64,000 nt of DNA. Origin: a virus. Lineage: Duplodnaviria; Heunggongvirae; Uroviricota; Caudoviricetes. The notes under the pieces were generated by a model that had not been told where the DNA came from, searched no databases, and saw only the letters and a program-made list of their open reading frames with translations. Below are positions 10,095-61,318 of this stretch, piece by piece; the first letter of the stretch is position 1; each line of letters starts with the position of its first letter. The position numbers and the translations under genes were made by a program. The stretch covers positions 1 to 64,000 of IMG/VR virus record IMGVR_UViG_2724679237_000005; one strand, given 5' to 3'.

Positions 10095-10130
10095 AAATAA
10101 CAAATTGTTTTCTTGTTGGTGTTAATTATC
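10095..10130 (-). promoter_or_regulatory. A-type promoter/leader motif
   Basis: The plus strand reads aaataacaaattgttttcttgttggtgttaattatc. Palindromic core AACAAATTGTT. The minus strand carries a GATAAT -10-like hexamer. Confidence 0.55.
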
Positions 10131-10252
10131 GTTGTACGAATAAGGCGTCAAAGTGGAAAGTTGCGGTAGCCGGACGGGAACAGGTGGGTTTGTCGGTTGC
10201 CTGGAGGTAAGAGGTTGGTGTTTTTAGCCTGCGGGAAACAGGATGGTCATTT

Positions 10253-10276
10253 AAGGCCACCAATGCTGATGGCCTT
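10253..10276 (-). terminator. hairpin after the 10282-10425 ORF
   Basis: aaggcca-ccaatgctga-tggcctt. The U-tract is weak. Confidence 0.4.
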
Positions 10277-10281
10277 AATAA

Positions 10282-10425
10282 TTATCGACCGATTACGCTA
10301 AGGATCTTTTCCTCAACTGATTTGTTGTTGCGACTAAACTGCCTTGCGTATCTGATGACAGAAGAGGCGTTTTGCTTTCTGACCATCTCGGCTCTTTCCT
10401 TCAGGCGTTTCTTGAAATCGCCCAT
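10282..10425 (-). CDS. hypothetical 47-aa basic protein
   Basis: MGDFKKRLKERAEMVRKQNASSVIRYARQFSRNNKSVEEKILSVIGR. The start lies 2 nt after the upstream ORF's stop. It falls below the ORF-track cutoff. Confidence 0.35.
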   Translation of the reverse strand: MGDFKKRLKERAEMVRKQNASSVIRYARQFSRNNKSVEEKILSVIGR

Positions 10426-10427
10426 AT

Positions 10428-10802
10428 TTACCACCAGGCGCAGAAGGTCAGTCTGTTATTGTGAAAGTCGTGGTTCCTGATCAGGTCTTCCACAAGTTTT
10501 TTCAGCTTATCCACGTCATGCCAGTAACCTTCGTCGTACTCCTGACTGCCGAAGAAAAAACCTTCCCGAGTAGGCAAGTACTCTTCGCAATTGCTTTCGT
10601 TTATGTGCATCAAATGAGCTTTCAGAAGGCAAATGTCATTCATCGTTAATTCTAAAAGCTCACAATTTTCGACTTCACCTACGTTGCGCTCCATCCACCC
10701 AACGAGCGCATTGAACTTACGGAAGTAAGCAACCTGCTTTCTGGATGCCTCGTTATTCAGATCGTTTTTAGGCTGTGTCTCGATATAGATATCAAGTCCC
10801 AT
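10428..10802 (-). CDS. hypothetical protein
   Basis: ATG at 10802 (MGLDIYIETQ) follows the strong SD aaggaa. 124 aa. Confidence 0.6.
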   Translation of the reverse strand: MGLDIYIETQPKNDLNNEASRKQVAYFRKFNALVGWMERNVGEVENCELLELTMNDICLLKAHLMHINESNCEEYLPTREGFFFGSQEYDEGYWHDVDKLKKLVEDLIRNHDFHNNRLTFCAWW

Positions 10803-10857
10803 GATGGTTTCCTTATTAAGTTGCTTCAGTGAAATCATTTTCACAAATCAGATAAGG

Positions 10858-10888
10858 CAGAAAACAAATTGTTATCGGGCATAATAAA
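10858..10888 (-). promoter_or_regulatory. A-type promoter/leader motif
   Basis: cagaaaacaaattgttatcgggcataataaa. TATTAT on the minus strand. Confidence 0.5.
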
Positions 10889-10911
10889 ATGGCGCGGTTT
10901 GCGCGCCATTT
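10887..10911 (-). terminator. rho-independent terminator of the 10920-11315 cassette
   Basis: aaatggcgcg-gtttg-cgcgccattt is a 10-bp stem. Confidence 0.75.
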
Positions 10912-10919
10912 AAAGAGGA

Positions 10920-11315
10920 TTAAGCGAATACGCTTTCAGGGATTAAGGTGTCGGCAGGAATGCCAGAGGTAATGCGCAGACCGTACTGGCCAATCCAGGT
11001 GGTGCTGGTGTTCAGGCTGGAGGCGAATACGGTGTTAACCATATTCATCATGGTTTCAAACACCTCTTCATCAACCTGGCGGAAGTAGTTCTCGATTTTC
11101 AGCAGCAGCGGGTCAGTTGCATCGAGAATGGACTGGTATTGAGTCGCGTACTCGCCGCCGGAGGCATCACCTTTACGCACGATCGTACTGGCCTGGACTT
11201 CGGCACCAGTTTCGGTGTTGTACGTAACAACGGTGATTTTTGCCACATTCTTACCTTCGGCAGTTTCAGAGGCATAGTAAACATCAACTGTCAGTTTTTC
11301 GCGTTTAACGGTCAT
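10920..11315 (-). CDS. hypothetical protein
   Basis: ATG at 11315 (MTVKREKLTV) follows SD ggagag. 131 aa. Confidence 0.6.
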   Translation of the reverse strand: MTVKREKLTVDVYYASETAEGKNVAKITVVTYNTETGAEVQASTIVRKGDASGGEYATQYQSILDATDPLLLKIENYFRQVDEEVFETMMNMVNTVFASSLNTSTTWIGQYGLRITSGIPADTLIPESVFA

Positions 11316-11358
11316 TTCACTCTCCGTAGCGTATTGGTTATTTTTATATTCTATGATC

Positions 11359-11374
11359 GTAAGTATGTACTTAC
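11359..11374. promoter_or_regulatory. B-type operator inside a sigma70-like promoter
   Basis: gtaagtatgtacttac. The minus strand reads TTGTAA-17 nt-TAGAAT with the palindrome filling the spacer. Confidence 0.55.
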
Positions 11375-11383
11375 AATACAAAA

Positions 11384-11406
11384 AGCCCCGTAAGGATGGC
11401 GGGGCT
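11384..11406 (-). terminator. rho-independent terminator of the 11441-11752 cassette
   Basis: agccccg-taaggatgg-cggggct with TTTTGTATTG following on the minus strand. Confidence 0.75.
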
Positions 11407-11440
11407 GTCGTACTGTCGACTAATTACCACTTGCACATTA

Positions 11441-11752
11441 TCAGGCTATTGCCATCACTGATGCTCTCTGAATTTCTTGCTGGGCCACGCGGTTAACTTC
11501 CATCAAAGCCAGTTCGAGCTGATGTTCCGGCCACATTCTTTGAAATGCCACCCAGCCTTTTCCACGCTGGCGACGAACATTCATTACATAACGAGTAAAG
11601 GTGTTTTTATCGAAAGACACCGCTGTTTCACGGAACAGACGAATAGAGGTTCCATTGGCAACGATGTCCAGCAAAGTTAATTGAGCAACCAGTGCAGGCT
11701 TCTCTTTTCTCTTCTGGTCTTTGTCCAGACCAAGAACCAATGATTTTTTCAT
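11441..11752 (-). CDS. hypothetical protein
   Basis: ATG at 11752 (MKKSLVLGLD) follows SD ggag. 103 aa. Confidence 0.55.
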   Translation of the reverse strand: MKKSLVLGLDKDQKRKEKPALVAQLTLLDIVANGTSIRLFRETAVSFDKNTFTRYVMNVRRQRGKGWVAFQRMWPEHQLELALMEVNRVAQQEIQRASVMAIA

Positions 11753-11763
11753 CACAACTCCGT

Positions 11764-11797
11764 AAACAACTTGTTTTCTCAATGGCGTAAATAATAC
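11764..11797 (-). promoter_or_regulatory. A-type promoter/leader motif
   Basis: aaacaacttgttttctcaatggcgtaaataatacc. TATTAT on the minus strand. Confidence 0.5.
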
Positions 11798-11878
11798 CAG
11801 TAAGAAAACGGCTACAAAGCATATTGATCAGGTGCATAAGCGATACGCAGGTTCTTCCCTGCGGCTACAGATTAAGTT

Positions 11879-11898
11879 AAGCCAGCATTGCTGGCTTT
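11879..11898 (-). terminator. terminator of the 11906-12235 cassette
   Basis: aagccagc-att-gctggctt hairpin. Confidence 0.6.
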
Positions 11899-11905
11899 GA
11901 TTGGT

Positions 11906-12235
11906 TTACGCGAATACCTCAAGAAACTCCTGAACGTCCCAATGCTGGACAAGGTGAAGATAGACCTTAGAAATCACGTCATTCTCGCTATCGCATGTGA
12001 AGTAGTACTTCTGGCTGCGGTTGTATGTGTCCACACAAAATTCGCTCATATCCATAAAGTCAGCATCATCACCCAGGTCGCTAATCATCAAAGCAGGTGC
12101 ATCATCACGAGTCATCAGCTCCAGCACCCATCTTGAATTAATCAGAGTGGAAGACCAACCTTCCAGCTCATAAAACTGGTCAAACTCTTTTTGAGTCAAT
12201 TTCTTAATTTGGTTGATGTCGATATGTGCAAACAT
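11906..12235 (-). CDS. hypothetical acidic protein
   Basis: ATG at 12235 (MFAHIDINQ) follows SD aagga. 109 aa, Asp/Glu-rich (DLGDDADFMDMSEF). Confidence 0.55.
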   Translation of the reverse strand: MFAHIDINQIKKLTQKEFDQFYELEGWSSTLINSRWVLELMTRDDAPALMISDLGDDADFMDMSEFCVDTYNRSQKYYFTCDSENDVISKVYLHLVQHWDVQEFLEVFA

Positions 12236-12247
12236 AAAGCAATCCTT

Positions 12248-12280
12248 AAACAAGATGTTTTCTTAATGGTGTTATTATCG
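12248..12280 (-). promoter_or_regulatory. A-type promoter/leader motif
   Basis: aaacaagatgttttcttaatggtgttattatcg. GATAAT on the minus strand. Confidence 0.5.
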
Positions 12281-12599
12281 CAATAACGCACAGGCGAAAA
12301 AAGGATTTTATTCCGGTGAATGTGGTTTTGGCAGTGAGTTTTCAGGTTCAGTACAGAGTACACTTTTTACATTATTCTGATTTAGTGGCCGAAGATGGCT
12401 GGTGGGCAGAATAATCATCTCCCCGAAAACCTACTGAAATCGATTGTGACCCGTTGGCTGTCTGGCACAATTACGCTGTAACTGGGCATTCAGAGGGAAT
12501 CCAGCGGTAAGTAGGTTCGCCTTCACGTGAGCGCCTCTCTTCTTCCCGAACATTGCAGGTGGCCAGCCGCAACTCTCCCTCTCGCTATACCGGTACGCC

Positions 12600-12733
12600 G
12601 CCGTTCCTGAACCGGCATCGAGCCTTTTCCCGAAATCCACACAGGCAACTCGACCGTTTCCCTGAAAATCCCCAGCCGTTCCCCGAAGGCAACCCAGCCG
12701 TTTCTGTAGCGGGATGCAGCCTTTTCCCTGTAT
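12600..12733. repeat. iteron-like direct-repeat array, six copies of GCCGTTTCCC(t)GAA
   Basis: Copies start at 12600, 12622, 12653, 12675, 12698 and 12720, giving spacings of 22, 31, 22, 23 and 22 bp. All are in one orientation. The ORF-track ORFs crossing the array have no SD or start context. Confidence 0.65.
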
Positions 12734-12790
12734 GGACCGAAGGCTGACCGTAGGAGTGTTACGGGGGATAAAATCAGGAGTTGAATAAAT

Positions 12791-12817
12791 ACGAAAAAGG
12801 AGGCGACACCCCTCCTT
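12791..12817 (-). terminator. rho-independent terminator ending the C/A-rich transcript
   Basis: On the minus strand, aaGGAGG-ggtgtcg-CCTCCtt is followed by TTTTCGT. Confidence 0.65.
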
Positions 12818-13650
12818 CCCTCCCCACTTATACATACCTTGCTTCTTCGCTATACATGTTGTGTTTTCTTCGTGTTTTATCTGTCTCAACCTCTCTATAG
12901 GCGTTAATGCTTACTCCTTCCAGAAACTTCTATACGGCGACTATTTCTGTTGGTGAATTGGGTGTGTTGTTTTCTCTGTCGGTGTATGTGGTTTCGTTCG
13001 TTTTGCGGTGGTTCTTCTATGGGGTGTTCTCGTCGTTTTGGTGATTGTTCTTCTCCGTGTATGGAGTAATGGCAGGTGGGCGATTCCTTTCGTTATTGTG
13101 TTTGAGTTGTTTGTCTGGAGTGCGTGAAGGGCTTTTGTAGTTATTCGTGTATTGGGTAATGGCGTTTCCCGTGATTGTTATGTTTCGTGTCTTTTGGGAT
13201 TGAGAGAAACCTTGCGGTTACAGGCTTCGTTGGGGTTTCAGCGGTTCAGGTGTTTCTTCGCTGTTTGGGTAATGGCGTGTCGTGGGTATCGCGCGTATGA
13301 ATGTTTTCGGATTGCCTGTGAAAGTTAGGTTGGTTGTCCGGTAGCCTGGGGAGAAGAGGTGGGTCTTTTCGGTAGCCTGCCATAAAGAGGTTGGTTGTTT
13401 TGGGTAATGGCATATGTGTTATTTAGTTGTTTTGTTATGCCTGAAAATAAGTTGTTTATATGGTTGTGTAACGCAACGGGAGCGATTTTGAGCGTGTGTT
13501 TTTGTTGGTAGTGTGTTGAGTCGTCTGTAGTGAAAATTGGACGCTGTGGAGCTGTCTGCTGCGTAGGATTACGAGTATAAGAAGTGATGTGTGAAAACGT
13601 CAATTTTTTAGACCAAATCGGGTGAAGGCGTTGACGTTTCGTTGATCTGT
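12818..13650 (-). ncRNA. candidate ~0.85-kb non-coding transcript, C/A-rich and G/U-poor
   Basis: It is bounded by an A-type motif (13651-13683) and the terminator at 12791-12817. The only ORF (13325-13603) has a TTG start and a low-complexity Q/T/P/N product. The plus strand is strikingly G+T-rich. Confidence 0.3.
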
Positions 13651-13683
13651 TATTCAGTTGTTTTCTTATTGGTATAAATAACT
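13651..13683 (-). promoter_or_regulatory. A-type promoter/leader motif (half-palindrome) with no downstream ORF
   Basis: tattcagttgttttcttattggtataaataact. It keeps the CCAATAAGAAAAC leader, but the left half of the core is degenerate. Confidence 0.4.
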
Positions 13684-13795
13684 ATAACCTATTGATATTT
13701 AAGGATGTGATTGCGGGTATGGAGGGAGGGTAGTGGCGATCAACGGATTCTTATAGAAAAGAATCAAATTGTGACCGCCATTATCAACGGTTTGG

Positions 13796-13981
13796 TTAGA
13801 TGAGATGGTCTAATTCATCATCTATCATGGCTTTGACGCTGGAGTCATTCACTCCATATTTATTTATGAGCTGTTTCAGCTCTGGCGAAAACTGAAGGTA
13901 GATATCGTGAGCGTTTTTCACTGTAGGTTCAACGCCACGCATTTCAAGCGCCTTTAGTAGATATGAGTCTTCTTTAAGCAT
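13796..13981 (-). CDS. hypothetical small protein
   Basis: 61-aa ORF downstream of the 14018-14317 ORF. Confidence 0.45.
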   Translation of the reverse strand: MLKEDSYLLKALEMRGVEPTVKNAHDIYLQFSPELKQLINKYGVNDSSVKAMIDDELDHLI

Positions 13982-14017
13982 AAATTCTCCGTTATCTAGT
14001 ATGAAGCGATTGCCGGA

Positions 14018-14317
14018 TTACCATTGCCAGCACTCAAGCCCTTCAACGACCGGTGCGCCACAATCAAAATGTACAGAGTCAAAGCCTACATCAAGTACTT
14101 TCTGAATGTTCGCAATCGCGCCCTCGGATATACCATATCGACGCAACTCATCTTTCCAGTCATCGTCCTGTAACCCGGCGTGGACAATGCAACCGTACTC
14201 AATTTGTGAAACCCAATCCAGCTCATTGCTTGCGATCATGAATCGGCGAGCATCTTCCTCTGATGTATGAGATGAGCTGATCAATGCCACCTGGTAGGCT
14301 TGGGTAATGTTCAACAT
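14018..14317 (-). CDS. hypothetical protein
   Basis: ATG at 14317 (MLNITQAYQ) lies 8 nt after GGAG. 99 aa. Confidence 0.55.
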   Translation of the reverse strand: MLNITQAYQVALISSSHTSEEDARRFMIASNELDWVSQIEYGCIVHAGLQDDDWKDELRRYGISEGAIANIQKVLDVGFDSVHFDCGAPVVEGLECWQW

Positions 14318-14329
14318 TTCAACCACTCC

Positions 14330-14362
14330 AAAACAAGTTGTTTTCTTATGTGGTTTATTATC
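14330..14362 (-). promoter_or_regulatory. A-type promoter/leader motif
   Basis: aaaacaagttgttttcttatgtggtttattatc has a perfect 7-1-7 palindrome. GATAAT on the minus strand. Confidence 0.55.
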
Positions 14363-14379
14363 TCCATCAACAAAAGGCA

Positions 14380-14404
14380 GAAAACAAATTGTTTTAGGTA
14401 CTGT
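14380..14404 (-). promoter_or_regulatory. truncated A-type motif marking the left junction of the chromosomal-type insert
   Basis: aaggcagaaaacaaattgtt matches the copy at 10855-10875. The sequence then diverges and no -10 element follows. Confidence 0.45.
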
Positions 14405-14430
14405 GTAAATCAGAAGGGATTGTGTCTATA

Positions 14431-14459
14431 TGAAAATGCCCGGCGTGTTGCCGGGCATT
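14431..14459 (-). terminator. metG rho-independent terminator
   Basis: aatgcccggc-gtgtt-gccgggcatt with TTTTCA on the minus strand, 20 nt after the stop codon. Confidence 0.85.
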
Positions 14460-14478
14460 GCGAAGAGAGGTTGTTTAA

Positions 14479-16512
14479 TTACTTAACCTGGTGACCAGGT
14501 TTAGCACCAGCATCCGGGCTTAACAGGAAGATATCTTTCCCGCCGGGGCCAGCAGCCATCACCATGCCTTCAGAGATACCGAAGCGCATTTTACGCGGAG
14601 CCAGGTTAGCCACCATAATGGTGTGACGACCAATCAGTGCCTGTGGATCTGGATAAGCGGAACGGATGCCTGAGAAGACATTACGCTTTTCACCACCGAG
14701 ATCCAGCGTCAGGCGAAGCAGTTTGTCAGAACCTTCGACAAACTCCGCGTTTTCAATCAGCGCCACACGCAGGTCAACTTTGGCGAAGTCGTCAAAGGTG
14801 ATGGTTTCCTGAATCGGGTCGTCAGCCAGTGGGCCAGTTACCGGTGCAGCTGTGGCTTTCACTTCTTCTTTGGATGCTTCCACCAGTGCTTCCACCTGTT
14901 TCATATCGATACGGTTATACAGTGCCTTGAACGGATTCACTTTATGGCCCAGCAGCGGTTGCTGGATACCATCCCAGGTCAGTTCTGTATTCAGGAATGC
15001 TTCTGCACGTTCAGTCAGTTTCGGCAGTACCGGTTTCAGGTACGTCATCAGCACGCGGAACAGGTTAATGCCCATAGAGCAAATCGCCTGCAGATCGGCA
15101 TCGCGTCCTTCCTGCTTCGCCACCACCCACGGAGCCTGTTCATCGACATAGCGGTTAGCCAGATCAGCCAGCGCCATGATTTCACGAATCGCTTTACCAA
15201 ATTCGCGGCTTTCCCATGCTTCACCAATCACTTCAGCGGCATCAGTAAAGGTTTTGTACAGTTGCGGGTCAGCCAGTTCGCCTGCCAGCACACCGTCAAA
15301 ACGCTTATTGATAAAGCCCGCGTTACGGGACGCCAGATTCACCACTTTGTTCACGATATCGGCATTCACGCGCTGAACGAAATCCTCCAGGTTGAGATCG
15401 ATATCATCAATGCGCGAAGAGAGTTTCGCAGTGTAGTAGTAACGCAGGCTGTCAGCGTCAAAATGATTCAGCCAGGTGCTGGCTTTAATAAAGGTGCCGC
15501 GAGACTTGGACATCTTCGCACCGTTCACCGTCACATAGCCATGAACAAACAGGTTGGTCGGCTTGCGGAAGTTGCTGCCTTCCAGCATGGCAGGCCAGAA
15601 CAGGCTGTGGAAGTAAACGATATCTTTACCGATGAAGTGGTACAGCTCGGCGGTGGAATCTTTCTTCCAGTATTCATCGAAGCTTACGCTGTCGCCGCGC
15701 TTATCACACAGATTCTTGAAAGAGCCCATATAGCCAATCGGTGCGTCCAGCCAGACGTAGAAATATTTACCCGGCGCGTTCGGAATTTCAAAACCGAAGT
15801 AAGGTGCATCGCGGGAGATATCCCACTGTTGCAGACCAGATTCAAACCACTCCTGCATTTTGTTTGCCACCTGCTCCTGCAACGCACCGCTGCGGGTCCA
15901 TGCCTGCAACATTTCGCTGAAAGAGGGCAGATCAAAGAAGAAGTGTTCAGAATCACGCATTACCGGCGTAGCGCCAGAAACCACCGATTTCGGTTCGATC
16001 AATTCAGTCGGGCTATATGTTGCGCCGCAGACTTCACAGTTATCGCCATATTGATCAGGTGCTTTACATTTCGGGCAGGTGCCTTTCACAAAACGGTCCG
16101 GCAGGAACATGCCTTTTTCCGGGTCGTACAACTGAGAGATAGTGCGGTTTTTAATAAAACCGTTCTCTTTCAGGCGAGTATAGATAAGCTCAGACAACTG
16201 ACGGTTCTCTTCGCTGTGCGTCGAGTGATAGTTGTCATAGCTGATGTTAAAGCCTGCGAAATCAGTCTGGTGTTCCTGACTCATTTCGCCAATCATCTGC
16301 TCCGGTGTGATACCAAGTTGCTGTGCTTTCAGCATGATCGGCGTGCCGTGGGCATCGTCGGCACAGATGAAATTAACCTCGTGGCCGCGCATTCGTTGGT
16401 AACGAACCCAGACATCAGCCTGGATGTGCTCCAGCATATGGCCGAGGTGGATTGAGCCGTTAGCGTACGGCAGCGCGCACGTCACCAGAATTTTCTTCGC
16501 GACTTGGGTCAT
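14479..16512 (-). CDS. metG: methionine--tRNA ligase
   Basis: 677 aa from [25 protein letters not shown]. Carries the HLGH (HIGH-class) and KMSKS motifs, CPKC/CEVC zinc knuckles and a C-terminal Trbp111-like domain. It differs at only a handful of positions from E. coli MetG as I remember it. Confidence 0.97.
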
Positions 16513-16669
16513 AGTAGGCATTACTTCTTTGTAGTGAAAAGGGGCTTGATAGTAACAAAATGGCCTTATGTCTGCCATGTGATAACAGCATTTCTCATAA
16601 ATGATTAAATGTCGTAGCTGGAGTACACTACAAGGCGACAATTGCGCAAATTAAAATAAAGGAGACGGG

Positions 16670-26907: not shown

Positions 26908-26940
26908 CAAAACAAGTTGTTTTCTAATTACATAAATTGC
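26908..26940 (-). promoter_or_regulatory. A-type promoter/leader motif
   Basis: caaaacaagttgttttctaattacataaattgc. Confidence 0.5.
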
Positions 26941-37127: not shown

Positions 37128-37162
37128 TTAAACAAGTTGTTATCTTATTTGTTTAAACAAGG
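37128..37162 (-). promoter_or_regulatory. A-type promoter/leader motif
   Basis: taaacaagttgttatcttatttgtttaaacaagg, between nrdA and nrdB. Confidence 0.45.
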
Positions 37163-45114: not shown

Positions 45115-45337
45115 TTATTCACATATCCACAGGATAGATCCTAATAAAGAGATCCATAGATAGATCCTTGTATAGATCAAATAAGATCCCCGATCGCTGT
45201 AAGCCGCTCCACGACTGGTCTGAAGCCATGTTCATGTATGCTGCCAGCGGTAATTGATAGTCTGTCAACGGTTCGCCGTATGCTGCCAACTGTTTTTGGT
45301 ATGCTGCCAGCGGCAAATCAAGTATGCTGTCAGCGGT
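45115..45337 (+). other. P1-oriR-like plasmid replication origin
   Basis: Tandem DnaA boxes ttattcaca (45115-45123) and atatccaca (45123-45131). Six GATC sites between 45137 and 45195, five of them in AGATC(C) repeats spaced 10-14 bp apart. Four iterons TATGCTGYCARCKGT at 45237, 45279, 45300 and 45323, just upstream of repA. Confidence 0.8.
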
Positions 45338-45357
45338 TGAATGACAAAGGTGTCCAC

Positions 45358-46452
45358 ATGTCCACAAAAAATAAAAAAGGTAAAAATAACAAAGAAGTAG
45401 AAGATAATCTCGACAACTTTGAAGAAGGTTCCCTTGAATTGTACACAGGGGAACTTGTCCCTAATAGCAACAATACAGTCCAACCAATTGCGTTGATGCG
45501 GCTGGGGTTGTTCGTGCCCACGCTCAAGGGGACAAAATACAGCAAGCGTAACAAGCCAAATGAGATCGATGCTTCAAAGGAGCTTGTTCAGCTCGAAGTA
45601 GCCCGTTCTGAAGGCTATTCCGATATCAAGATAACCGGTCCTCGTCTCGACATGGATCATGATTTCAAAACGTGGGTGGGCGTTGTGCGTTCGCTGGCAG
45701 AATACGGCGAACCTAACGGTCGTGTCGAGTTAAGCATCACGAAATTTGCGAAGTTTTGTGGCTATCCATCGTCACAGATCCGCAAAACACTCCGCGACCG
45801 GCTTACAAACAGTCTTTTGAAGATCATGCGTACAACTCTGTCTTTCCAGAGAACGTATGAAGAAAAGAACGTCGACGGCTCTAACAAGATCTCGCTTCTG
45901 ATGGTGCACCTCATCAATAGCGTGGACTACAACGAGCAGAAAGATACGGTGGTGTTCTATGCAGAACCGAAGCTGGCCGAACTATATCGCTTTGACCATA
46001 AGGTTCTTTTGCAGTTAAAGGTTATCAATAAGCTACCACGCAAAGAAACAGCACAGGCTCTGTACACCTTCATCGAAAGTCTTCCAACCAAGCCTGCGCC
46101 GGTATCGCTTGCTCGATTGCGTGCGCGACTCAATTTGAGTAGTAGGAATGTCAGCTCGCAGAATCAGACTATACGTAACGGCTTAAAAGCTCTCCAAGAT
46201 TTGGGCTATCTCGAATACAGCGAGATTAAGCGTGGGCGGTCGATCTATATCCAGATTCACAGCCGCAATCCAAAACTCAAAGTCGCACCGCCAAAACCTG
46301 AAGACATCGAACCCAAAAAACCAGATGAGAAAGCTGGGGAAATTGATGCCAAACAGAACATTATCAACAAGATAACCGAACTTTCGCAGAATTTGACGCC
46401 TGAAAATATCAAGATGATTGAGATCCTTTCCAATAGTCTCAAACTGCTTTGA
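45358..46452 (+). CDS. repA: iteron-binding replication initiator RepA (P1/RepFIB type)
   Basis: ATG at 45358. 364 aa. NNTVQPIALMRLGLFVPTLK, ITGPRLDMDHDFKTWVGV, LLQLKVINKLPRKETAQALYTFIESLP and LARLRARLNL match my memory of RepFIB/P1 RepA. The upstream part of the tracked ORF just reads through the iterons. Confidence 0.9.
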   Translation: MSTKNKKGKNNKEVEDNLDNFEEGSLELYTGELVPNSNNTVQPIALMRLGLFVPTLKGTKYSKRNKPNEIDASKELVQLEVARSEGYSDIKITGPRLDMDHDFKTWVGVVRSLAEYGEPNGRVELSITKFAKFCGYPSSQIRKTLRDRLTNSLLKIMRTTLSFQRTYEEKNVDGSNKISLLMVHLINSVDYNEQKDTVVFYAEPKLAELYRFDHKVLLQLKVINKLPRKETAQALYTFIESLPTKPAPVSLARLRARLNLSSRNVSSQNQTIRNGLKALQDLGYLEYSEIKRGRSIYIQIHSRNPKLKVAPPKPEDIEPKKPDEKAGEIDAKQNIINKITELSQNLTPENIKMIEILSNSLKLL

Positions 46453-46983
46453 TATGCTGTCAGCGGTGAAATGTATGCTATCAGCGGCTATTTTTCTGAA
46501 AAGTATGCTGTGAACGGTTAAAGATATGCTACCAGCGGTATAGTGAGATGAACGTATGCTGTGAGCGGTAAATCATCTATCACCACTCAATGCTCTGTCA
46601 TACCTCCCCAGTGGTTACTAACCTCGAAGAGTGCATTCCATATAGGTTTGCGCTCACTAACATTCTATTGCTATTGCGCTGATTGCTTGTAGTGAAAGGC
46701 ATTTATTGCCTGCTGCTCCTGATAGAACGTATGCTGTCAGAGGTGTTTTATTGAGGAATTTTTGTTTGGATATGCTATCAGCGGTAATTAATGGCATATG
46801 TCAGACCTTCGTATGCTGCCAGCGGTAATTTTGTTCTGGTTATACCCATACCGGTACATATTATTCATGCAATGTCTTAAGTATGCTGTCAGCGGTAAAA
46901 AATCGAGTAAAGTATGCTGTGAGCGGTGAGATAGACTCTCGATATGCTATCAGCGGCAGTTGATTGTGTATGCTGTCAGCGGT
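46453..46983 (+). repeat. incA-like downstream iteron array (12 copies)
   Basis: TATGCTNNNARNGGY copies (TATGCT and GG invariant) start at 46453, 46474, 46504, 46525, 46555, 46729, 46770, 46812, 46882, 46913, 46944 and 46969. All are in the same orientation as the four upstream copies. Confidence 0.85.
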
Positions 46984-47030
46984 GACGACTATGAAATATG
47001 ACTGCGGAACGAGCCGCAGTCAGTTTGCAT

Positions 47031-49193: not shown

Positions 49194-49225
49194 GTGTTTT
49201 CCTATGTGGTTGTTATGCGAAAATA

Positions 49226-49241: not shown

Positions 49242-49285
49242 ATATTTTCAAGAGATAAAAAAGGCGTCCTGTGGACGCCTTGTGT

Positions 49286-50359: not shown

Positions 50360-50361
50360 GA

Positions 50362-51623: not shown

Positions 51624-51632
51624 GTAATGGGA

Positions 51633-52661: not shown

Positions 52662-52745
52662 GTGTTTCTCCTTGTTGTGATTTGGCCGATGGCGCTATGC
52701 GCGTTGGGCTTTCGTTCATTCGTGGCTCTTTCGAGCTGTTAAATG

Positions 52746-52765
52746 ATAGATCAGTACTTACTTAT
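52746..52765. promoter_or_regulatory. B-type palindromic operator-like motif
   Basis: atagatcagtacttacttat. Confidence 0.45.
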
Positions 52766-52778
52766 TATCTATCAAAAA

Positions 52779-53234: not shown

Positions 53235-53335
53235 TTTGTATTGATTATATCATTGTAATGATGAGGCAATGAGCTTGAAGATAGGGGGGGGAGGGGATAA
53301 GGGAAAACATGGCCTTTATGGCCATGTTTATTGGA

Positions 53336-55236: not shown

Positions 55237-55249
55237 TTCTAAGACTCAC

Positions 55250-55285
55250 TAAACAAATTGTTTTCTTATCTTATAAATTAATTCT
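55250..55285 (-). promoter_or_regulatory. A-type promoter/leader motif in front of the HNH gene
   Basis: taaacaaattgttttcttatcttataaattaattc. Confidence 0.5.
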
Positions 55286-57648
55286 CAAATATCGAAGCTC
55301 GTTATGTCGGCATTTATTGCCATTGCTTCGGCATAAGTGCGACGCTCACCATCAGCACAAAGTAGGCGTGCTGCTTTATGGATTTTTCTCGTAGAACCGT
55401 CATCCAGTGACACTGTCACCCAGCCTTCCTCCGCTCGCTTAATGAAGTCGCCGCCAATGGATTTCATTTTCTCCATATCTTTTTTCCCGATCGCTTTCCT
55501 GACCGAGTCTGCTTCCGCCATTGAGAACCCCGCCAAGATTCGCGTAGCAGCCATGATCTGTTCCTGATAAATCAGAACACCGTTTGTGTCGCGAGAGATG
55601 TCGTCCAGCATAGGGTGTAAGGAATGTGGAGCCATGAAGCCTTTGGCCACGGAGACATAGTCGTCCAACATGCCGGATTGAATCGGGCCTGGTCGGAAGA
55701 GTGCGGTCGTGGCGACAACGGTCTTGAAGCTCATTGGCTCGATGCCACCGCCCAGATCTTTAAGCAACTTACGCATGGGGCCGGACTCCAGCTGGAATAC
55801 GCCCTGCGTGTACCCTGCAGCGAACCCATCCAGAACCTTGCGATCGTCCAGTGGGATAGCGTCGAGATTGATATCTTCACCTGTGTTCTCTTTTATGTAG
55901 CGTTTTGCACTATCGAGCAAATCGAGAGTTGCCAGGCCAAGCACGTCCAGCTTAATTAGGCCCATAGCCTCGCAGTAACGCTTGTCAAATGCGATACAAC
56001 GCGCGTCACCACGTCGTTCAACCGGTGTACGTTCTGTCAGAGGAACACCTGCTACGATCATCCCTGCCGCATGTCTACCAAAGCCACGCATAAGGCTTTG
56101 TAACTTGCAGGCTGCATTGAATGCATCAGGATATTTTGTTGCGTATTTGTCGAGACTTGCCAGTTGTTCGCGCAGTTCTTCCAATGGAAGGCTATCATCC
56201 TCAGCGTTCTTCAGTTCTTTTGATACCGCCATATCTGCGGACTCCACACCATAAATACGAGCGGTGTCACGTAGTGCAGAGGCTGCGCCCAGGTAGGTGA
56301 AGTTCGGAATGCCTGCAACGTAATCTTCGCCGTAGCGTTCATTCAGATACTCGATCACCTCATGGCGACGTGCCTGGCTGAAGTCCAAATCCGCATCTGG
56401 CAAGTCGAGACGCTCAGGGTTGATGAAACGCTCAAACAGAAGACCGTGACGGATTGGGTCGACGTTGGTTATGCCTATGCACCACGCCACCAGAGAACCG
56501 GCAGAGGAACCACGACCAGGCCCAACGGGAATGCCAGTTTCACGACTATGATTCATCAGATCGCGCACCATCAGGAAGTAACCACAGAATCCCAGGCGAG
56601 TCAGCGTGTCCATTTCGTACTTTAGCCGCTCAACATAAACCCTGTTCTCAGAAGCAGGTGGTGTGTATCCAAACTCTTTTGTGGTAAGACGTTTACGCAG
56701 CCCTGCAACAGCCAGTTTCATCAGCGTTGCAGGTTCGTCGTCTGCCATCTTGGGCAGTGCTGGTGGCAATTCATGCCAGCGCCATGTGCAGGAATCGATA
56801 ATGGTATCCTGCGTTGTTGAGGCCATTGCAGCTGTTACAGGCACATCCATGCGAACGGAGAAGGCTTTAAGCGCCTCAAGGAGATGGCGGCGACCATTGA
56901 CGGCGTTATCTCGCTGGTGGGGGATACGCAGACGATGCGGCTGGTCGATTTTGATGTTGTTCGTAACCATGTGCGCAATGTCTTTAATGTCTGCATCGTC
57001 GATCGATTCGTAATAAGCGGGATAGAACGCCACTGGCTCTATTTTCAATGCGCTGGCGACTTTCATCGCCCGGACGTTAATCTGGTCGTAGAATGGGGTA
57101 GGGTGCGGATAAACCACACTATAGAAGTTGTCTTTTCCACCCGCTGTAATCAGTGTGCTTATGATTTTTGCAAAATCGTTGCGTTGGAACACGCTACCGA
57201 TGTCGGAAGTAAGCAGGATGATGTTGCCTTTGGCATATGTAGAAACCAACTGTTCGAGCGAGAGACGCGGTACAAAGTAGAACTGTTCTCGTGTGTTGGC
57301 CGCCGTCATTAGTTCGCAGATGTCGCGATATCCTTGCTCATTTTTAATTAGAGCGGTAAACGAGTAGTTACGTCCCCGCTCTAATGATTCCATACATCTC
57401 ATAGATTCTTTAGCAAGTTTAGCCCGGTGCTCGTATGTGGGATCATCAACAATGTTTAGTTTCACACCACAAATAACCGCCATGTCGTCACCAGCGGCAC
57501 GTTGTAGTGGAATAACGCTCGCAATATTCATGCTATCTGCTGAAATTACAGCGGTGTAGCCAGCTTCTCTGGCAATCTTCACCGCGTTTTCTGCTTTTAG
57601 AGCCGACTCCCCAAGTGAGAAGTCAGTTCGAACCATCAGTGCCTTCAT
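55285..57648 (-). CDS. dnaE: DNA polymerase III alpha, N-terminal fragment (PHP, palm, thumb, part of fingers)
   Basis: 787 aa. GSSAGSLVAWCIGITNVDP and the catalytic LPDADLDF are present. DnaE homology ends at FIKRAEEG and is followed by a 45-aa unrelated tail. Confidence 0.85.
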   Translation of the reverse strand: MKALMVRTDFSLGESALKAENAVKIAREAGYTAVISADSMNIASVIPLQRAAGDDMAVICGVKLNIVDDPTYEHRAKLAKESMRCMESLERGRNYSFTALIKNEQGYRDICELMTAANTREQFYFVPRLSLEQLVSTYAKGNIILLTSDIGSVFQRNDFAKIISTLITAGGKDNFYSVVYPHPTPFYDQINVRAMKVASALKIEPVAFYPAYYESIDDADIKDIAHMVTNNIKIDQPHRLRIPHQRDNAVNGRRHLLEALKAFSVRMDVPVTAAMASTTQDTIIDSCTWRWHELPPALPKMADDEPATLMKLAVAGLRKRLTTKEFGYTPPASENRVYVERLKYEMDTLTRLGFCGYFLMVRDLMNHSRETGIPVGPGRGSSAGSLVAWCIGITNVDPIRHGLLFERFINPERLDLPDADLDFSQARRHEVIEYLNERYGEDYVAGIPNFTYLGAASALRDTARIYGVESADMAVSKELKNAEDDSLPLEELREQLASLDKYATKYPDAFNAACKLQSLMRGFGRHAAGMIVAGVPLTERTPVERRGDARCIAFDKRYCEAMGLIKLDVLGLATLDLLDSAKRYIKENTGEDINLDAIPLDDRKVLDGFAAGYTQGVFQLESGPMRKLLKDLGGGIEPMSFKTVVATTALFRPGPIQSGMLDDYVSVAKGFMAPHSLHPMLDDISRDTNGVLIYQEQIMAATRILAGFSMAEADSVRKAIGKKDMEKMKSIGGDFIKRAEEGWVTVSLDDGSTRKIHKAARLLCADGERRTYAEAMAINADITSFDI

Positions 57649-57832
57649 GTGTTTTTACCTTTCTGGTTTTTTTGATTTTGTCATTGGGGAAGCCTACGAA
57701 CTTCCCATGCATCGAAATCGCAACTTCTTTTGCTGATTGGTGACAATCGGGCTTGTCTGGACACACCAGACAAGCCTTACCAGTTTCAGAAGCAGCGATA
57801 AGAGAGCCGAAACATCCTTTACGCACGATCAA
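57623..57832 (-). CDS. possible small Cys-rich protein
   Basis: 69-aa ORF with a TTG start overlapping the AAA+ gene's stop. Contains CLVCPDKPDC and overlaps the dnaE start by 26 nt. Confidence 0.25.
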   Translation of the reverse strand: MIVRKGCFGSLIAASETGKACLVCPDKPDCHQSAKEVAISMHGKFVGFPNDKIKKTRKVKTHEGTDGSN

Positions 57833-59064
57833 CCAAATATTTTTTGAACAACTTCACGAGCCGCTTGTGCAGAAGCTGAAGGGAGTTTGTTAATGAAAGA
57901 ACGCTCAATACCTGTCACAAAGTCGCCTCGCATCATTCCAATCTTGGCCGACAACAAAAGTTCACGAGGGCCAATTGGCTGACTGATAAGGTGTTCTTCG
58001 TATCCATCGCGAACGATACCGGCAAACTTAACCATCTTTTCTGCGTATTCATCCACGATACCGGCATTTATCAACATGTTGATCTCTGCCTCTTTGCTCA
58101 TGTATTTCACATTCGAAACGATGCCAAAACGCGAAAAGTTCGCGGCGTTCTGGATGTTTGTACCCTGGTACAAGCCGGTTTCATCACCAGATCCGTTCGT
58201 GTTGCCAGTGCCAATGAAAGCAAACCGTTCATGCGGAGTAATGCGACGCCATTCTGGAGTCGCCTCTTTGATGACCAACGCTTCACCTTCCAGCACTGGC
58301 TGATACACGCCAAGAATCTGTGGAAACGCAAAGTCGTATTCATCCGCGAGGTAAACCCAGCCATGCTTCATTGCGAGCGCAAGCAAGCCAGGTTCGAAAT
58401 ACGTAGAGCCATCACGCGCCAGAATTTGCCCCGTAACATGTGCCTCTTCCATTGATGCTGTATGTTGGGCACGGATCAACGGACGATTGAGCAAAGCACA
58501 TAGCTGTGTAGGCAATGACGATTTGCCTGTTCCTGCATGACCCCACAAATAGCCAGGTATGCCAAGTTCAAGCATCATGAAAATATCTTTGATCAGTTCG
58601 AAGTCGCCATATACGTAGCCTTTCTTCACTTCGGGAACGAACTCTGGAAACGGCGTATTGACGTTGACGCTAACCATGAGCGGCGTCCCACGTTTTGTTC
58701 CGAGTTCTTCCACCGTTACGTCTAGCAGTTCGTGAGCTGCGACCAGATCTGTCTTGTACTCAACTGTGCCTGTGTAGCCTGGGCTACTGGTCACGCCAGA
58801 TGATTTGGCCATTTCGCTTTTTTGCTCGGCACGTTTAGCTTGAATTGCATCAAGTGCCTTTTTCGATAGCGTTGGCTCATCTGGAAACTGTGTTGTGTAC
58901 ATTTTCAGTACGGTGTCAGGATCGGCATCTTTTACTGACTCAGGAATGCCCTCGCAATTACCATTGGCTACATGGGACTTAAAATAGTGAAATGATTTTC
59001 CGCACCACTTGCAAACAAGGTAATCAGAAGGATTTTTTTCATTTTGCAGTGCAGTAGTCGTCAT
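57829..59064 (-). CDS. AAA+ ATPase (CobS/MoxR-like)
   Basis: 411 aa. N-terminal Cys cluster CKWCGKSF, Walker A GHAGTGKSS and Walker B VYLADEYD. Confidence 0.7.
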   Translation of the reverse strand: MTTTALQNEKNPSDYLVCKWCGKSFHYFKSHVANGNCEGIPESVKDADPDTVLKMYTTQFPDEPTLSKKALDAIQAKRAEQKSEMAKSSGVTSSPGYTGTVEYKTDLVAAHELLDVTVEELGTKRGTPLMVSVNVNTPFPEFVPEVKKGYVYGDFELIKDIFMMLELGIPGYLWGHAGTGKSSLPTQLCALLNRPLIRAQHTASMEEAHVTGQILARDGSTYFEPGLLALAMKHGWVYLADEYDFAFPQILGVYQPVLEGEALVIKEATPEWRRITPHERFAFIGTGNTNGSGDETGLYQGTNIQNAANFSRFGIVSNVKYMSKEAEINMLINAGIVDEYAEKMVKFAGIVRDGYEEHLISQPIGPRELLLSAKIGMMRGDFVTGIERSFINKLPSASAQAAREVVQKIFG

Positions 59065-59122
59065 GCGTTTTTCCTTTGTTTTCTAATGAGCGTTCAACTT
59101 CTTATATAAATATATCATTAAC

Positions 59123-59142
59123 TATCGTAAGTGGTTACTTAT
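59123..59142. promoter_or_regulatory. B-type palindromic operator-like motif
   Basis: tatcgtaagtggttacttat. Confidence 0.45.
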
Positions 59143-59159
59143 CATTAAGGCTGTTTTGT

Positions 59160-61268
59160 TCACTTTAAAATGATACGAGATAGTTCAGTAACTACAGATG
59201 AACCAAGACTATCAACGCTCGTTACCAGGGCATGATTTGAGTAAAATCTCTCCGGTGCGTCAGTCATGATGCCAATTGCCATCAAATCAATGTCAGTCTG
59301 CGTTTCAATTTGTTTCGCAACCGAACGCAAATGAGCGTCAAAACCTCTCCCAACAGCCCACGGCGCGCCATCACTCAGAACAAGCATGATCTTCCTGTCC
59401 TCCATGCGACCGGAAAATAACGATGCAAGGCTGGCTATGCTTTCACCATCCACGTTATTAAGAAGTGGGAATGTGTAGCCTACGCACCCCATACGTGAGC
59501 GAACTTCGCGAGAATTTACCTTTTCATTCCAATTTTTGATGATAGGTAGCATTAAAGATTCAAAGCGAGAGAACTCATACTTGACAGCCTTAAGTTCTCC
59601 TGCCGCCATATGACTACCAAATGTAGTGAAGCCGGTGATAATGTTGGGAACATTTATTCGATCAAGGGCATCGGCGATGGTATATGCACTTGCAAGAGCC
59701 AATTGTATCGTTATACCACTCATTGAACCTGATAAATCAATCACTTGTTGAACACAGGCGTTAACGGCTTTAGATTCTTCTTTTTTACGAAACACGCGAT
59801 CATCATTCATTGCTAATCTGTAGATACTAGAACCATGAATGCGCCCCCGACGCTGGCCCGGTATAAACTGAACTCTGTTTCTGCTTGCTATTGCTCGCTC
59901 TAGGTCTTTTGCCAGCGTCGACGAAACACCTGACGAAAGATGCTTTTCAATATATTTGTCGAAGAGCTGGTTGCCTTCAGGAACGATGCGATAGCGGCTG
60001 ATTGGATATCCTCCCAAATCAATATCGGAGAATGTTTTAATAAGCCGTTTGATATGGGCTTCTGCCTGATCAATCGAGCCGATGAAGTCGTATGAGCGAT
60101 TGTATGGCCTGTATTCGCTTTTCGAGCTTTCTGTTAACTCGCTTTTAATCGTTTCGGATAGAGCATCTTCTGTCATGCCTCCGACTTCATCTTCTATGCT
60201 ATCCAGCTCCTCTAAAGCCTCTTCCAGACTCATTTTTGACGGAGTTGGAATATCTGAAGAGCCGTCTTCTGTCGTTTTTCTTTTTTCGTGGTCAGCGGTT
60301 AATGATTCTGACGCCGCGTTATCAGAAGCATCAGAATCTGATACCTCTTCATCATTTTCTGTATCATCGAATATTGTTTCTGATGATTCAGAATTATCTG
60401 AATCATCACTGTCGTTATTATCATGTTTGTGCTTACTGTGTGATTCTGGTTTGATAGATTTGTGATTATCTAACGCTGAGGGTGTCTCATAATCTTCGTT
60501 ATCTTCATTGTTTTCTCCAGAGGCATCCGTCTGGTCAGCGTCTGAAGGATCGGAAGTTTTTCCCGGAGCTGACTCCTTACCTTTGCTTTCACTTTCAGTG
60601 TCTTTGAGGATCTTAGCTATGGTCGCAGCCACCTTTACACAATCCTCGGTGCAAGACATGTTACGCACAGCCACATCGATACCATGTTCTTTTAATAATG
60701 AAATTGGTTTCTCAATGACAGGCCAGTATTCATCCATGAAATCTACGAACGGTGCTTGGCCATCCCAGGCTCTTACAACCGGACAGAGAAAGAAGTTTAG
60801 AAAAAGCGCGCGCTGATCTTTGCCACAATAAGCAATAGCCTCTGAAGCCTTTGGTTTAAAGACTTTTTCGATTATAAGGCGCTGAGTTGCCATCAGATTA
60901 CGTCTTGTTCCGTTAAAGACCTGCCCCATTTTTCGCTCGATGAACACGTCTTCTAAGGCATTCCATAGCGACCAGGAAGGAACGCGTCCTTTTTCTCTCA
61001 TTTTGTTGGACACACGAATATCGGTAAACAAAATGTGAGCAACCTCATGATCGAGAAATCCGCGCACAGCATTCATCAATGCCGGTGTTGCGTTATCCGG
61101 GATTGATGGGATGTTTACGAGAATTGGCTCTCCATCATCGTTATAGCGTACATAAGCGTCGTCCCCTCGTTCTGCAACAGGGATGTTTTTACCTGAAAGG
61201 AGAGCGACAACTCGTTTTACACTGTCACGGAAGTCCTGAACCTCTTTGATGGAACGTTTTTTAGACAT
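59160..61268 (-). CDS. VWA-domain protein (CobT-like)
   Basis: 702 aa. A central Asp/Ser/Glu-rich low-complexity region and a C-terminal VWA domain with MIDAS DLSGSMSG. Confidence 0.7.
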   Translation of the reverse strand: MSKKRSIKEVQDFRDSVKRVVALLSGKNIPVAERGDDAYVRYNDDGEPILVNIPSIPDNATPALMNAVRGFLDHEVAHILFTDIRVSNKMREKGRVPSWSLWNALEDVFIERKMGQVFNGTRRNLMATQRLIIEKVFKPKASEAIAYCGKDQRALFLNFFLCPVVRAWDGQAPFVDFMDEYWPVIEKPISLLKEHGIDVAVRNMSCTEDCVKVAATIAKILKDTESESKGKESAPGKTSDPSDADQTDASGENNEDNEDYETPSALDNHKSIKPESHSKHKHDNNDSDDSDNSESSETIFDDTENDEEVSDSDASDNAASESLTADHEKRKTTEDGSSDIPTPSKMSLEEALEELDSIEDEVGGMTEDALSETIKSELTESSKSEYRPYNRSYDFIGSIDQAEAHIKRLIKTFSDIDLGGYPISRYRIVPEGNQLFDKYIEKHLSSGVSSTLAKDLERAIASRNRVQFIPGQRRGRIHGSSIYRLAMNDDRVFRKKEESKAVNACVQQVIDLSGSMSGITIQLALASAYTIADALDRINVPNIITGFTTFGSHMAAGELKAVKYEFSRFESLMLPIIKNWNEKVNSREVRSRMGCVGYTFPLLNNVDGESIASLASLFSGRMEDRKIMLVLSDGAPWAVGRGFDAHLRSVAKQIETQTDIDLMAIGIMTDAPERFYSNHALVTSVDSLGSSVVTELSRIILK

Positions 61269-61284
61269 GGCTAATCCTTTGTTA

Positions 61285-61318
61285 TGAAAACAAATTATTT
61301 ACTAGTGTGTTTAATGTA
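61285..61318 (-). promoter_or_regulatory. A-type promoter/leader motif (degenerate)
   Basis: gaaaacaaattatttactagtgtgtttaatgtag. Confidence 0.35.

Follow-up and report, generated by a model that had tools for sequence, protein, structure and literature searches.

The A element and the genes behind it

The stretch of DNA analysed here (the window) covers 64,000 nucleotides, positions 1 to 64,000 of the IMG/VR virus record IMGVR_UViG_2724679237_000005, and carries many copies of a short sequence, named the A element in this study, which probably serves as a DNA operator. By megablast and blastn the window was placed in the SSU5 family as an E. coli phage-plasmid of the SSU5/pHCM2 type. Its identity is 96-98% to Escherichia phage Cyrano (pLF82), CMS-2020a and PhiR41_1, about 69-83% to Salmonella phage SSU5 and about 71-79% to Klebsiella phage-plasmids. 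Gene names were taken from the Cyrano and SSU5 annotations. Almost all genes behind the A element are located on the minus strand. They are those named in the first-pass annotation of this DNA, namely small cassette open reading frames (ORFs), a DUF4942 'methyltransferase', TerB, nrdB, an HNH/NUMOD3 gene and a CobT-VWA gene. In the literature that was searched, no description of the A element or of the regulatory circuitry of the SSU5 family was found.

The element is strongly overrepresented. The palindrome AAACAANTTGTTT with at most one mismatch gives 13 matches in the window at an expectation of 0.46, and none of 100 shuffled sequences reaches 13. Each of the 13 copies of AAACAAnTTGTTT, again with at most one mismatch, is intergenic. 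All 13 palindromes lie outside ORFs of at least 100 amino acids (aa), a measure by which about 22% of the window is non-coding (P ~2e-9). The extended, asymmetric 9-mer AGAAAACAA occurs 16 times, where 1.1 are expected, and 13 of these 16 are found on the gene strand. A 22-nt position weight matrix (PWM), built from ten well-aligned copies and then run over the window, recovers ten strong copies in gene sense with scores of 22-35; two copies (10854, 14374) score better on the opposite strand. An exact-match scan of IMG/VR for AAGAAAACAANTTGTTT returned mostly chance singletons and was uninformative. The copies are listed in Table 1.

Table 1. Copies of the A element in the window and the gene of one candidate reader. 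D, downstream placement; U, upstream placement; SD, Shine-Dalgarno sequence; distances are given to the ATG of the following gene.
Position	Strand	Feature	Sequence	PWM score	Gene context	Promoter features and counterparts
7006..7530	+	FljA-family gene, 174 aa			candidate reader; in oppositely oriented operon expressed in the lysogen	
10097..10118	-	D full copy	CAACAAGAAAACAATTTGTTAT	29.3	20 nt ahead of ATG, 160-aa ORF (9595-10077)	preceded by TTGACG-N15-GATAAT; orthologous copies Cyrano 98417, SSU5 94517
10854..10875 (site 10862)	+	U inverted copy	AAGGCAGAAAACAAATTGTTAT; on gene strand TAACAATTTGTTTTCTGCCTT		SD-preceded ATG 58 nt downstream	directly after terminator hairpin, over -35 of TGTGAAAAT (extended -10) promoter; promoter without D copy; Cyrano 97189 identical
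11763..11784	-	D full copy	CATTGAGAAAACAAGTTGTTTA	29.0	11 nt ahead of ATG, 103-aa ORF	extended -10 TGGTATTAT; SSU5 92751, Cyrano 96278
12247..12268	-	D full copy	CATTAAGAAAACATCTTGTTTA	30.5	12 nt ahead of ATG, 109-aa ORF	extended -10 TGCGATAAT
13445..13457	.	weak palindrome-only copy, doubtful member	AAATAAGTTGTTT	10.9	in ORF-free A/C-rich stretch	
13650..13671	-	half copy (left units only)	CAATAAGAAAACAACTGAATAA	18.8	heads ~780-nt ORF-free stretch	kept with following cAGATCAACGaAACGTCAAc in SSU5 (90525) and Klebsiella
14330..14351	-	D full copy	ACATAAGAAAACAACTTGTTTT	32.7	13 nt ahead of ATG, DUF5983 gene (14018-14317; Pfam DUF5983)	
14374..14395 (site 14382)	+	U inverted full copy	AAGGCAGAAAACAAATTGTTTT			exactly 51 bp from D copy at 14331
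25466..25487	-	D full copy	CAATAAGAAAACAAATTATTTA	29.9	12 nt ahead of ATG, 561-aa DUF4942 'methyltransferase' (Pfam DUF4942)	extended -10 TGTGATAAT; SSU5 82460
26180..26201	-	D full copy, best match	CAATAAGAAAACAACTTGTTTA	35.3	18 nt ahead of ATG, 188-aa ORF	Cyrano 81270, SSU5 81737
26909..26930	-	D full copy	TAATTAGAAAACAACTTGTTTT	30.7	24 nt ahead of ATG, TerB/TciA-like gene (Pfam TerB)	-10 poorly defined
37129..37150	-	D full copy	AAATAAGATAACAACTTGTTTA	31.9	30 nt ahead of nrdB ATG	just after nrdA terminator hairpin; no clear -10; SSU5 70211, Cyrano 70318
55250..55271	-	D full copy	AGATAAGAAAACAATTTGTTTA	31.5	14 nt ahead of ATG, HNH/NUMOD3 endonuclease gene (Pfam HNH_3, NUMOD3)	
59076..59084	-	single unit, possible half copy	AGAAAACAA fused to SD (AGAAAACAAAGGAAAAACGCATG)		cobS-like gene	
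61287..61308	-	D copy, weakest	ACACTAGTAAATAATTTGTTTT	22.5	19 nt ahead of ATG, CobT-VWA gene	higher scores in SSU5 (42721, 26.2) and pMT1 (28.7)

The first-pass annotation had listed 13 copies, 12 of which match the pattern at the given coordinates; the one at 13651 is recovered only by the PWM, as the left-arm-only copy at 13650-13671. The pattern also matches at 13445, where a weak copy of the palindrome alone is present. That annotation had also described all copies as sharing one orientation and the copy near 14380 as truncated. Judged by the asymmetric extension AGA-AAACAA, ten full copies are in gene sense and the copies at 10854-10875 and 14374-14395 are inverted, reading AAGGCAGAAAACAAATTGTT on the plus strand. 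The copy near 14380 is a full one, and it is the copy at 13650 that is truncated. The SD and ATG had been placed 15-60 nt after the element, but the downstream copies end 11-30 nt ahead of the ATG. A possible half copy adjoining the SD of the cobS-like gene (59076) was missed earlier, as were further copies in relatives at positions beyond the window: in Cyrano and SSU5 the element is also found at parA, at the DnaB-like helicase and at one further gene, CYRAN_58. A site at 4855 on the plus strand was discarded as a coding coincidence that is not conserved in SSU5.

Anatomy, placement and conservation

Taken over 36 distinct copies, the gene-strand consensus reads taaT.a.ac.aataAGAAAACAA.TTGTTTa; its information content is highest in the palindrome arms, both of which have about 1.2-1.8 bits per position. 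Read from its sequence, the element is shown to be an array of 8-bp (A/C)AAYAA units in the arrangement → → ←, for example [cCAATAAG][AAAACAAg][TTGTTTAa]. The 13-bp palindrome corresponds to the last two units, so that the earlier description as a palindrome holds for a part of a composite structure. Further forms are found in Klebsiella plasmids, which also carry arrays of TTGTTTTCT. In LR890700, the most divergent Klebsiella clade, the 5' extension consists of tandem direct arm repeats with an 8-bp period, GAAACAAG·GAAACAAG·ATGTTTA, and a second array form reads AAACAAG·AAAACAAC·ATGTTTA.

Two placements can be distinguished. The palindrome had been described as sitting just downstream of the -10. 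This is true for the gene-sense copies; those at 10854 and 14374 are located upstream, over the -35. The upstream placement became visible through the Klebsiella clades, where an inverted full copy (cCTTAAACAAnTTGTTTTCTGCCTT) follows directly after the terminator of the upstream gene and covers the -35. Klebsiella promoters with a full U copy have a half copy or none downstream of the -10. The window copies 10862 and 14382 belong to this inverted upstream type. Some promoters possess a U copy and no other (window 10862; Klebsiella 22898, 24031 and 24562), and U and D placements replace one another between clades. At all five promoters with two full copies, which belong to two non-orthologous genes, the copies are inverted and exactly 51 bp apart, or about five helical turns. 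In the window the pair at 14374 (U) and 14331 (D) brackets the -35/-10 of the DUF5983 promoter, with a like pair in Cyrano and SSU5, and the 51-bp pair is also found at a different gene, DUF4942, in two Klebsiella plasmids.

The distance from the GATAAT-like hexamer to AGAAAACAA is constant at 11-13 nt. A GATAAT-like -10 had been claimed for the copies in general; it is clear at about 6-7 of ten and degenerate at 26909, 37129, 55250 and 61287. The reading of GATAAT as a -10 is supported by TGn extended -10 motifs at 11764, 12248, 25467 and 10862. With GATAAT numbered as -12 to -7, the palindrome would lie at about +8 to +20 in D copies (centre near +14) and at about -44 to -32 in U copies (centre near -38), and both positions are predicted to be repressive.

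The A element is retained almost unchanged at orthologous promoters in Cyrano, SSU5, four Klebsiella plasmids of divergent clades (CP067502, NZ_CP084809, NZ_CP027864 and LR890700), pMT1 and a chromosomal SSU5-like remnant. The promoters concerned include those of parA, helicase, cobT, nrdB, DUF4942, TerB and small-ORF cassettes. The flanks of these conserved sites are only about 67-80% identical. As judged by these comparisons, conservation of the sites amid diverged flanks is a strong phylogenetic footprint. A different situation is found in a Pectobacterium SSU5-like plasmid, in which the palindrome does not occur in 108 kb. In this plasmid, orthologous promoters retain the left units, located after the -10, e.g., GAAATAATtacatCAATAAGAAAA, and AATAAGAAAACAA is present ahead of parA. 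Since the left units persist alone in Pectobacterium, they represent the older layer, with the inverted third unit as a later addition in the Enterobacteriaceae clades.

In addition, two weaker A copies are located in direct tandem, at a distance of 25 bp, upstream of the terminase small-subunit gene in SSU5 (L123:48-95), in pMT1 (L142:14018-14064) and in a further record (L139:2970-3016). Such a pair would tie the late/packaging operon to the A signal; the equivalent position is just past the start of the window. The half copy at 13650 heads a stretch of about 780 nt on the minus strand (window 12890-13670) which is ORF-free, A/C-rich and G-poor. It contains GCCATTACCCAA three times together with direct repeats of 28-31 nt. 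Its head, cAGATCAACGaAACGTCAAc, is kept in SSU5 and in divergent Klebsiella plasmids and gave no Rfam match. The stretch could encode a long non-coding RNA or form a protein-binding array.

Operator model and alternative readings

We consider it probable that the A element is a DNA operator positioned near +14 or -38 of σ70-type promoters, and that its regulon is conserved across the SSU5/pHCM2 family. Recognition as double-stranded DNA by a multimeric protein is suggested by the exact dyad, by the untranscribed and sometimes sole U copies, by the interchangeability of U and D placements and by the 51-bp phasing. The U copies follow terminators, precede the -35 and are not included in the downstream transcript. 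The core of the first-pass proposal finds good support in the comparative evidence, namely a second co-regulated gene set with the palindrome in a repressor or roadblock position, promoter activity and repression being its predicted parts. In such a model, a plasmid-encoded protein would bind the units as cooperating dimers. The bound protein would occlude the -35 and/or the downstream DNA channel of RNA polymerase, and would in this way keep early, DNA-metabolism and accessory promoters shut while the prophage replicates as a plasmid.

Expression data of the Cyrano lysogen are consistent with promoters held off in the plasmid state. In the LF82 transcriptome, 9 of 12 genes behind the element are at background, with values of 5.7-13 as compared to a median of 9.8, the exceptions being parA (50), the helicase (21) and CYRAN_111 (25) (S1 Table; PMC9928086).

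Several observations speak against this model. The RNA-seq data are of a correlative nature and were obtained with a 97%-identical relative, and the silence of the genes could equally reflect a missing activator. The promoter positions depend on reading GATAAT as the -10, and a convincing -10 is not seen at four copies. A sigma-70 consensus scan of the window calls none of these promoters, owing to the spacing of 15 nt between TTGACG and GATAAT. Moreover, the sense-strand bias of 13:3, the half copies fused to the SD and the tight coupling to the ribosome-binding site (RBS) are not required by a pure DNA-operator model.

The palindrome is located in the 5' untranslated region of D-type genes and is able to form a stem of 5-6 A-U base pairs, so that an RNA hairpin acting in the leader as an attenuator, processing or stability element was considered. 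Among 47 distinct variants of the 13-mer there are 64 deviations, of which 55 break a pair, 9 give G-U and none is compensated; the arms vary independently. Folding z-scores of the leaders are near 0, i.e., their minimum free energies are indistinguishable from those of shuffled sequences, a search of the element against Rfam gave no match, and the inverted copies lie upstream of the promoters. The compensatory-change analysis effectively refutes the hairpin, which we regard as extremely improbable. An explanation without a dedicated trans-acting reader would be a strong early promoter with an A-rich leader, spread among the cassettes by duplication and recombination. In its favor, the left part of the element (-10 ... 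CAATAAGAAAA) is older than the palindrome and stands alone in Pectobacterium, the modules are located between a terminator hairpin and a small ORFan cassette, and a CA at the predicted start and an A-rich leader are generic traits of efficient expression. Yet the information profile shows the palindrome arms, and not the -10 or -35, to be conserved best, and the palindrome also occurs inverted upstream of the promoter at fixed phasing. In addition, the -35 and spacer are poorly kept, so that the repeats of about 22-45 nt are too short to be good recombination substrates, and genes behind good-looking promoters are silent in the lysogen. We therefore give this explanation little credence.

Much the same low probability is assigned to a site for a host (enterobacterial) factor. 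Such a factor would account for a core that is invariant across clades whose proteins have fallen to 26-54% identity and for the absence of the palindrome in a plasmid from another host family, the Pectobacteriaceae. The enrichment is specific to this replicon family, however, which argues against a host factor; the sites kept in Yersinia pMT1 were counted on the same side but are uninformative. We know of no E. coli regulator with the A-element consensus. The nearest motif is the KdgR-type AAACA-N-TGTTT, which differs in half-site spacing.

Taken as a DNA operator, the A element seems to work functionally like the dispersed operators of P1 C1, RK2 KorA/KorB and pSM19035 ω, none of whose consensuses match it. 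Phage-plasmid P1 likewise has one operator dispersed at early and accessory promoters which silences the plasmid prophage. The C1 operator is asymmetric and 17 bp long, and its consensus as we know it has no match in the window at up to three mismatches, whereas the A element is a dyad and arrayed; a C1 homolog was not noticed. In the IncP plasmid RK2, 13-bp palindromic operators are distributed over about a dozen promoters of a single replicon. One class of operators is centred near -39/-40 over the -35, comparable to the U copies at about -38, and the reader is tied to partition. In contrast to the A element, RK2 has no placement at +14 adjoining the RBS. The OB and OA consensuses known to us give only chance hits, none of them at A sites, and KorB is a ParB-type helix-turn-helix (HTH) protein, whereas the ParB-like genes considered here are silent in the lysogen. 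A further likeness exists to the promoter-early stem-loop (PeSL) cassettes of T4-type phages, in which a terminator hairpin and an early promoter are located between small ORFan genes of a plastic region, as in the window at 9.5-14.4 kb. Here, however, only about 22-45 nt are conserved, with the peak over the dyad and not over the promoter hexamers, and copies of the element are also located ahead of core genes (nrdB, parA, helicase, cobT) that do not belong to the plastic region.

Candidate readers and neighbouring features

The cognate factor, which the first-pass annotation had left unnamed, can be narrowed to two concrete candidates, a ParA-adjacent protein and an FljA-family protein. The most likely reader appears to be a small basic protein encoded directly after the type-Ib parA gene (CYRAN_29/SSU5_034), outside the window, a choice in which our confidence falls somewhat short of even. 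The FljA-like protein is an unlikely alternative, and the rest of our belief is placed on some other protein. A gene of 96-125 aa directly downstream of parA is present in all clades. It is labelled as putative toxin 'RelE/ParE' in Cyrano (CYRAN_29, L002:19975-20334) and as hypothetical in SSU5 (SSU5_034, L123:31231-31521). The partner is a 222-aa Walker-type (type Ib) ParA ATPase with matches to Pfam AAA_31, MipZ, CbiA and ParA and to a 'ParA-like' PHROG. A partition partner or regulator of this ATPase is more likely than a toxin. The protein is found in 797 plasmids, in 735 of which it is at least 95% identical across six genera. Relatives with only 54%, 36% and 34% identity keep RPQGRPTRGK..I[KR]SRT[MIV]S[LIM]E[DE]E[YF] and [ST]RSD, while the rest diverges. 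By eye, the sequence GRPTRGKEKIKSRTMSLEDEYFELLEMMKFIPRFEKFTRSDVIRAAIFHLAEKS reads as a basic tail followed by a putative ribbon-helix-helix (RHH) with an SRTMSL strand and an RSDVIRAAI helix. The gene is expressed in the Cyrano lysogen with a value of 89 (PMC9928086).

The parA promoter has a strong A site in every Enterobacteriaceae clade (Cyrano 29251, SSU5 30441, CP067502 (29.8), H161 and LR890700 (27.8)), as would be expected for autoregulation by ω- or ParG-type proteins. ω of pSM19035 and ParG of TP228 are RHH partners of type-Ib ParA ATPases. The ParA-adjacent protein would act like them, as an autoregulator of parA, a possible centromere-binding partner and a global repressor. The likeness extends to the sites, which are contiguous short units of 7-8 bp, direct and inverted, in promoter regions, and to the gene, which directly follows a small Walker-type ParA and encodes a flexible basic N-terminal tail. 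In these systems, the par operon is under autoregulation by a single small protein, and ω also controls several other promoters. Differences are found in the unit sequence, with ω heptad pairs not enriched at A sites, and in the fold, which for the protein considered here is a sequence reading only. The A regulon is also much more extensive, with at least 15-20 promoters, those of phage replication and nucleotide-metabolism genes among them, and its carrier is a phage-plasmid. Most A sites are a single → → ← triplet, many of them downstream of the -10, in comparison to arrays of 7-10 units.

Against the ParA-adjacent protein as reader stand the lack of any Pfam, NCBIfam or PDB match, with a PHROG of unknown function as the only assignment, and an hhalign comparison with RHH proteins, which gave a probability of 0.1%. 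The Pectobacterium plasmid possesses the protein with a near-identical putative reading strand and lacks the palindrome in its 108 kb; the two are reconcilable only if the protein reads the remaining → → units. Finally, pMT1 is without the protein yet retains the sites, but as a natural knockout it is uninformative because it is too recent a derivative, with flanks identical to SSU5.

Other proteins were considered and set aside. The 'putative repressor' CYRAN_45 (window 61831-62217) is unlikely because its integrase/repressor module is not seen beside SSU5 cobT, yet SSU5 keeps all sites. The 'LexA-like S24' protein CYRAN_98 is UmuD-like and frameshifted in the window, and the ParB-like genes, as KorB analogues, are silent in the lysogen. 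Subtraction of the Pectobacterium proteome from those of the palindrome-bearing clades left no clean candidate; CYRAN_37 emerged but is silent in the lysogen. A 92-aa protein (4850-5128) is RHH-like by eye, with an AlphaFold2 (AF2) pLDDT of 57. Since its putative reading strand varies between clades and it sits behind a non-conserved B-type palindrome, it more likely belongs to the B system.

The FljA-like protein shows a full-length match to PF03614 (E=5.4e-81), a fold of two tandem Hfq/Sm-like domains without HTH, and 35% identity, with invariant residues in common, to the fliC-repressor type of pBSSB1-like plasmids. Its gene is a core gene of the family and was found in 835 plasmids. Repressors of the FljA type are reported to block translation of fliC mRNA (PMC2652032). 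By analogy to Salmonella FljA on fliC, the A element might be an RNA operator, an A-rich/U-rich leader beside the SD at which the protein would block translation and/or destabilise the mRNA. We regard this as rather unlikely. It agrees with a PF03614 protein encoded by the same replicon in an operon expressed in the lysogen, and with D copies that are always in sense, end 11-30 nt ahead of the ATG and, as half copies, adjoin the SD. The palindrome is also absent where the FljA-like protein has diverged beyond recognition, in Pectobacterium. A resemblance to the element is found for the Salmonella/Citrobacter fliC leader CCCAATAACATCAAGTTGTAAT...AAGGAAAAGATCATG, with p=0.003 vs shuffles in local alignment, and both contain CCAATAA and CAAGTTGT; for the E. 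coli leader the value is p=0.07, and for fljB-type and Pantoea-type leaders p>0.6. Like the D copies, the target of FljA lies in sense between promoter and SD (PMC2652032). The resemblance is moderate, however, as it needs a 2-nt gap and the fliC leader scores poorly with the ungapped PWM. An exact dyad has no rationale for a reader of single-stranded RNA, the hairpin reading being rejected, and FljA has one known target, on mRNA, in contrast to at least 13 sites here. Among these, the inverted copies are not part of the regulated transcript, and some promoters have no other copy. The palindrome core stays the same where the FljA-like protein drops to 43, 36, 33 and 26% identity, i.e., motif and protein do not co-vary, and a pBSSB1-like plasmid with bona fide fljB-fljA has no A element. 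In the widest form of this reading, the FljA-family protein would control about 15-20 leaders as a global regulator, either post-transcriptionally or with a dual DNA/RNA action. Salmonella FljA would then be a domesticated copy and the fliC leader (CCCAATAAcatCAAGTTGT) a mimic of the phage operator, which we hold to be equally doubtful. In the Pectobacterium plasmid NZ_KP942676, an extremely diverged syntenic FljA-like gene is present (record 10473-10994), and a single-domain Hfq is encoded just upstream of the DnaB-like helicase (L146:23234-23455).

Several further features were noticed in the window. The B-type site AAGTAA-N4-TTACTT is a different palindrome from the A element, in line with the earlier distinction of two operators. 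It overlaps the -10 TATTATAAT at window 3225-3250 and is also found at 23752, 27803, 49223 and 52756. The ParB-like genes and the operon running from the helicase to the FljA-like gene diverge from a 64-bp region, in which the site at 3225-3250 is located. The exact B-type pattern gave no match in Cyrano, and this points to an immunity-specific operator, possibly read by the 92-aa RHH-like protein mentioned above (4850-5128). At least 12 iterons, GTATGCTG[T/C/A]CAGCGG, flank repA (45238-46452) at window 45236-46985. On the minus strand, a UmuD-like gene (17808-18102) is frameshifted; its counterpart in Cyrano is labelled 'LexA-like S24 peptidase' and strongly expressed there. A 1211-aa ORF (18258-21893, minus strand) has no Cyrano counterpart at that position, where Cyrano has Ea22/Eaa-like genes instead.

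Phage-plasmids of the SSU5/pHCM2/pMT1 type are common in clinical Enterobacteriaceae, and about 800 plasmids in PLSDB carry both candidate regulators. The A element maps one regulon in this family, which comprises parA, the replicative helicase, nrdB, cobT/cobS, the DUF4942 methyltransferase-like gene, TerB, the HNH endonuclease and small accessory cassettes. Should the FljA-like protein be the reader, a role of the FljA family beyond flagellar phase variation would come to light, together with the origin of FljA, and SSU5-type phage-plasmids such as pHCM2 might silence host flagellin. If the ParA-adjacent protein is the reader, plasmid segregation and the silencing of phage early genes would be coupled via one protein. 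With either reader, the A site could serve to predict the cargo genes that stay silent in lysogens and the promoters that become active on induction.

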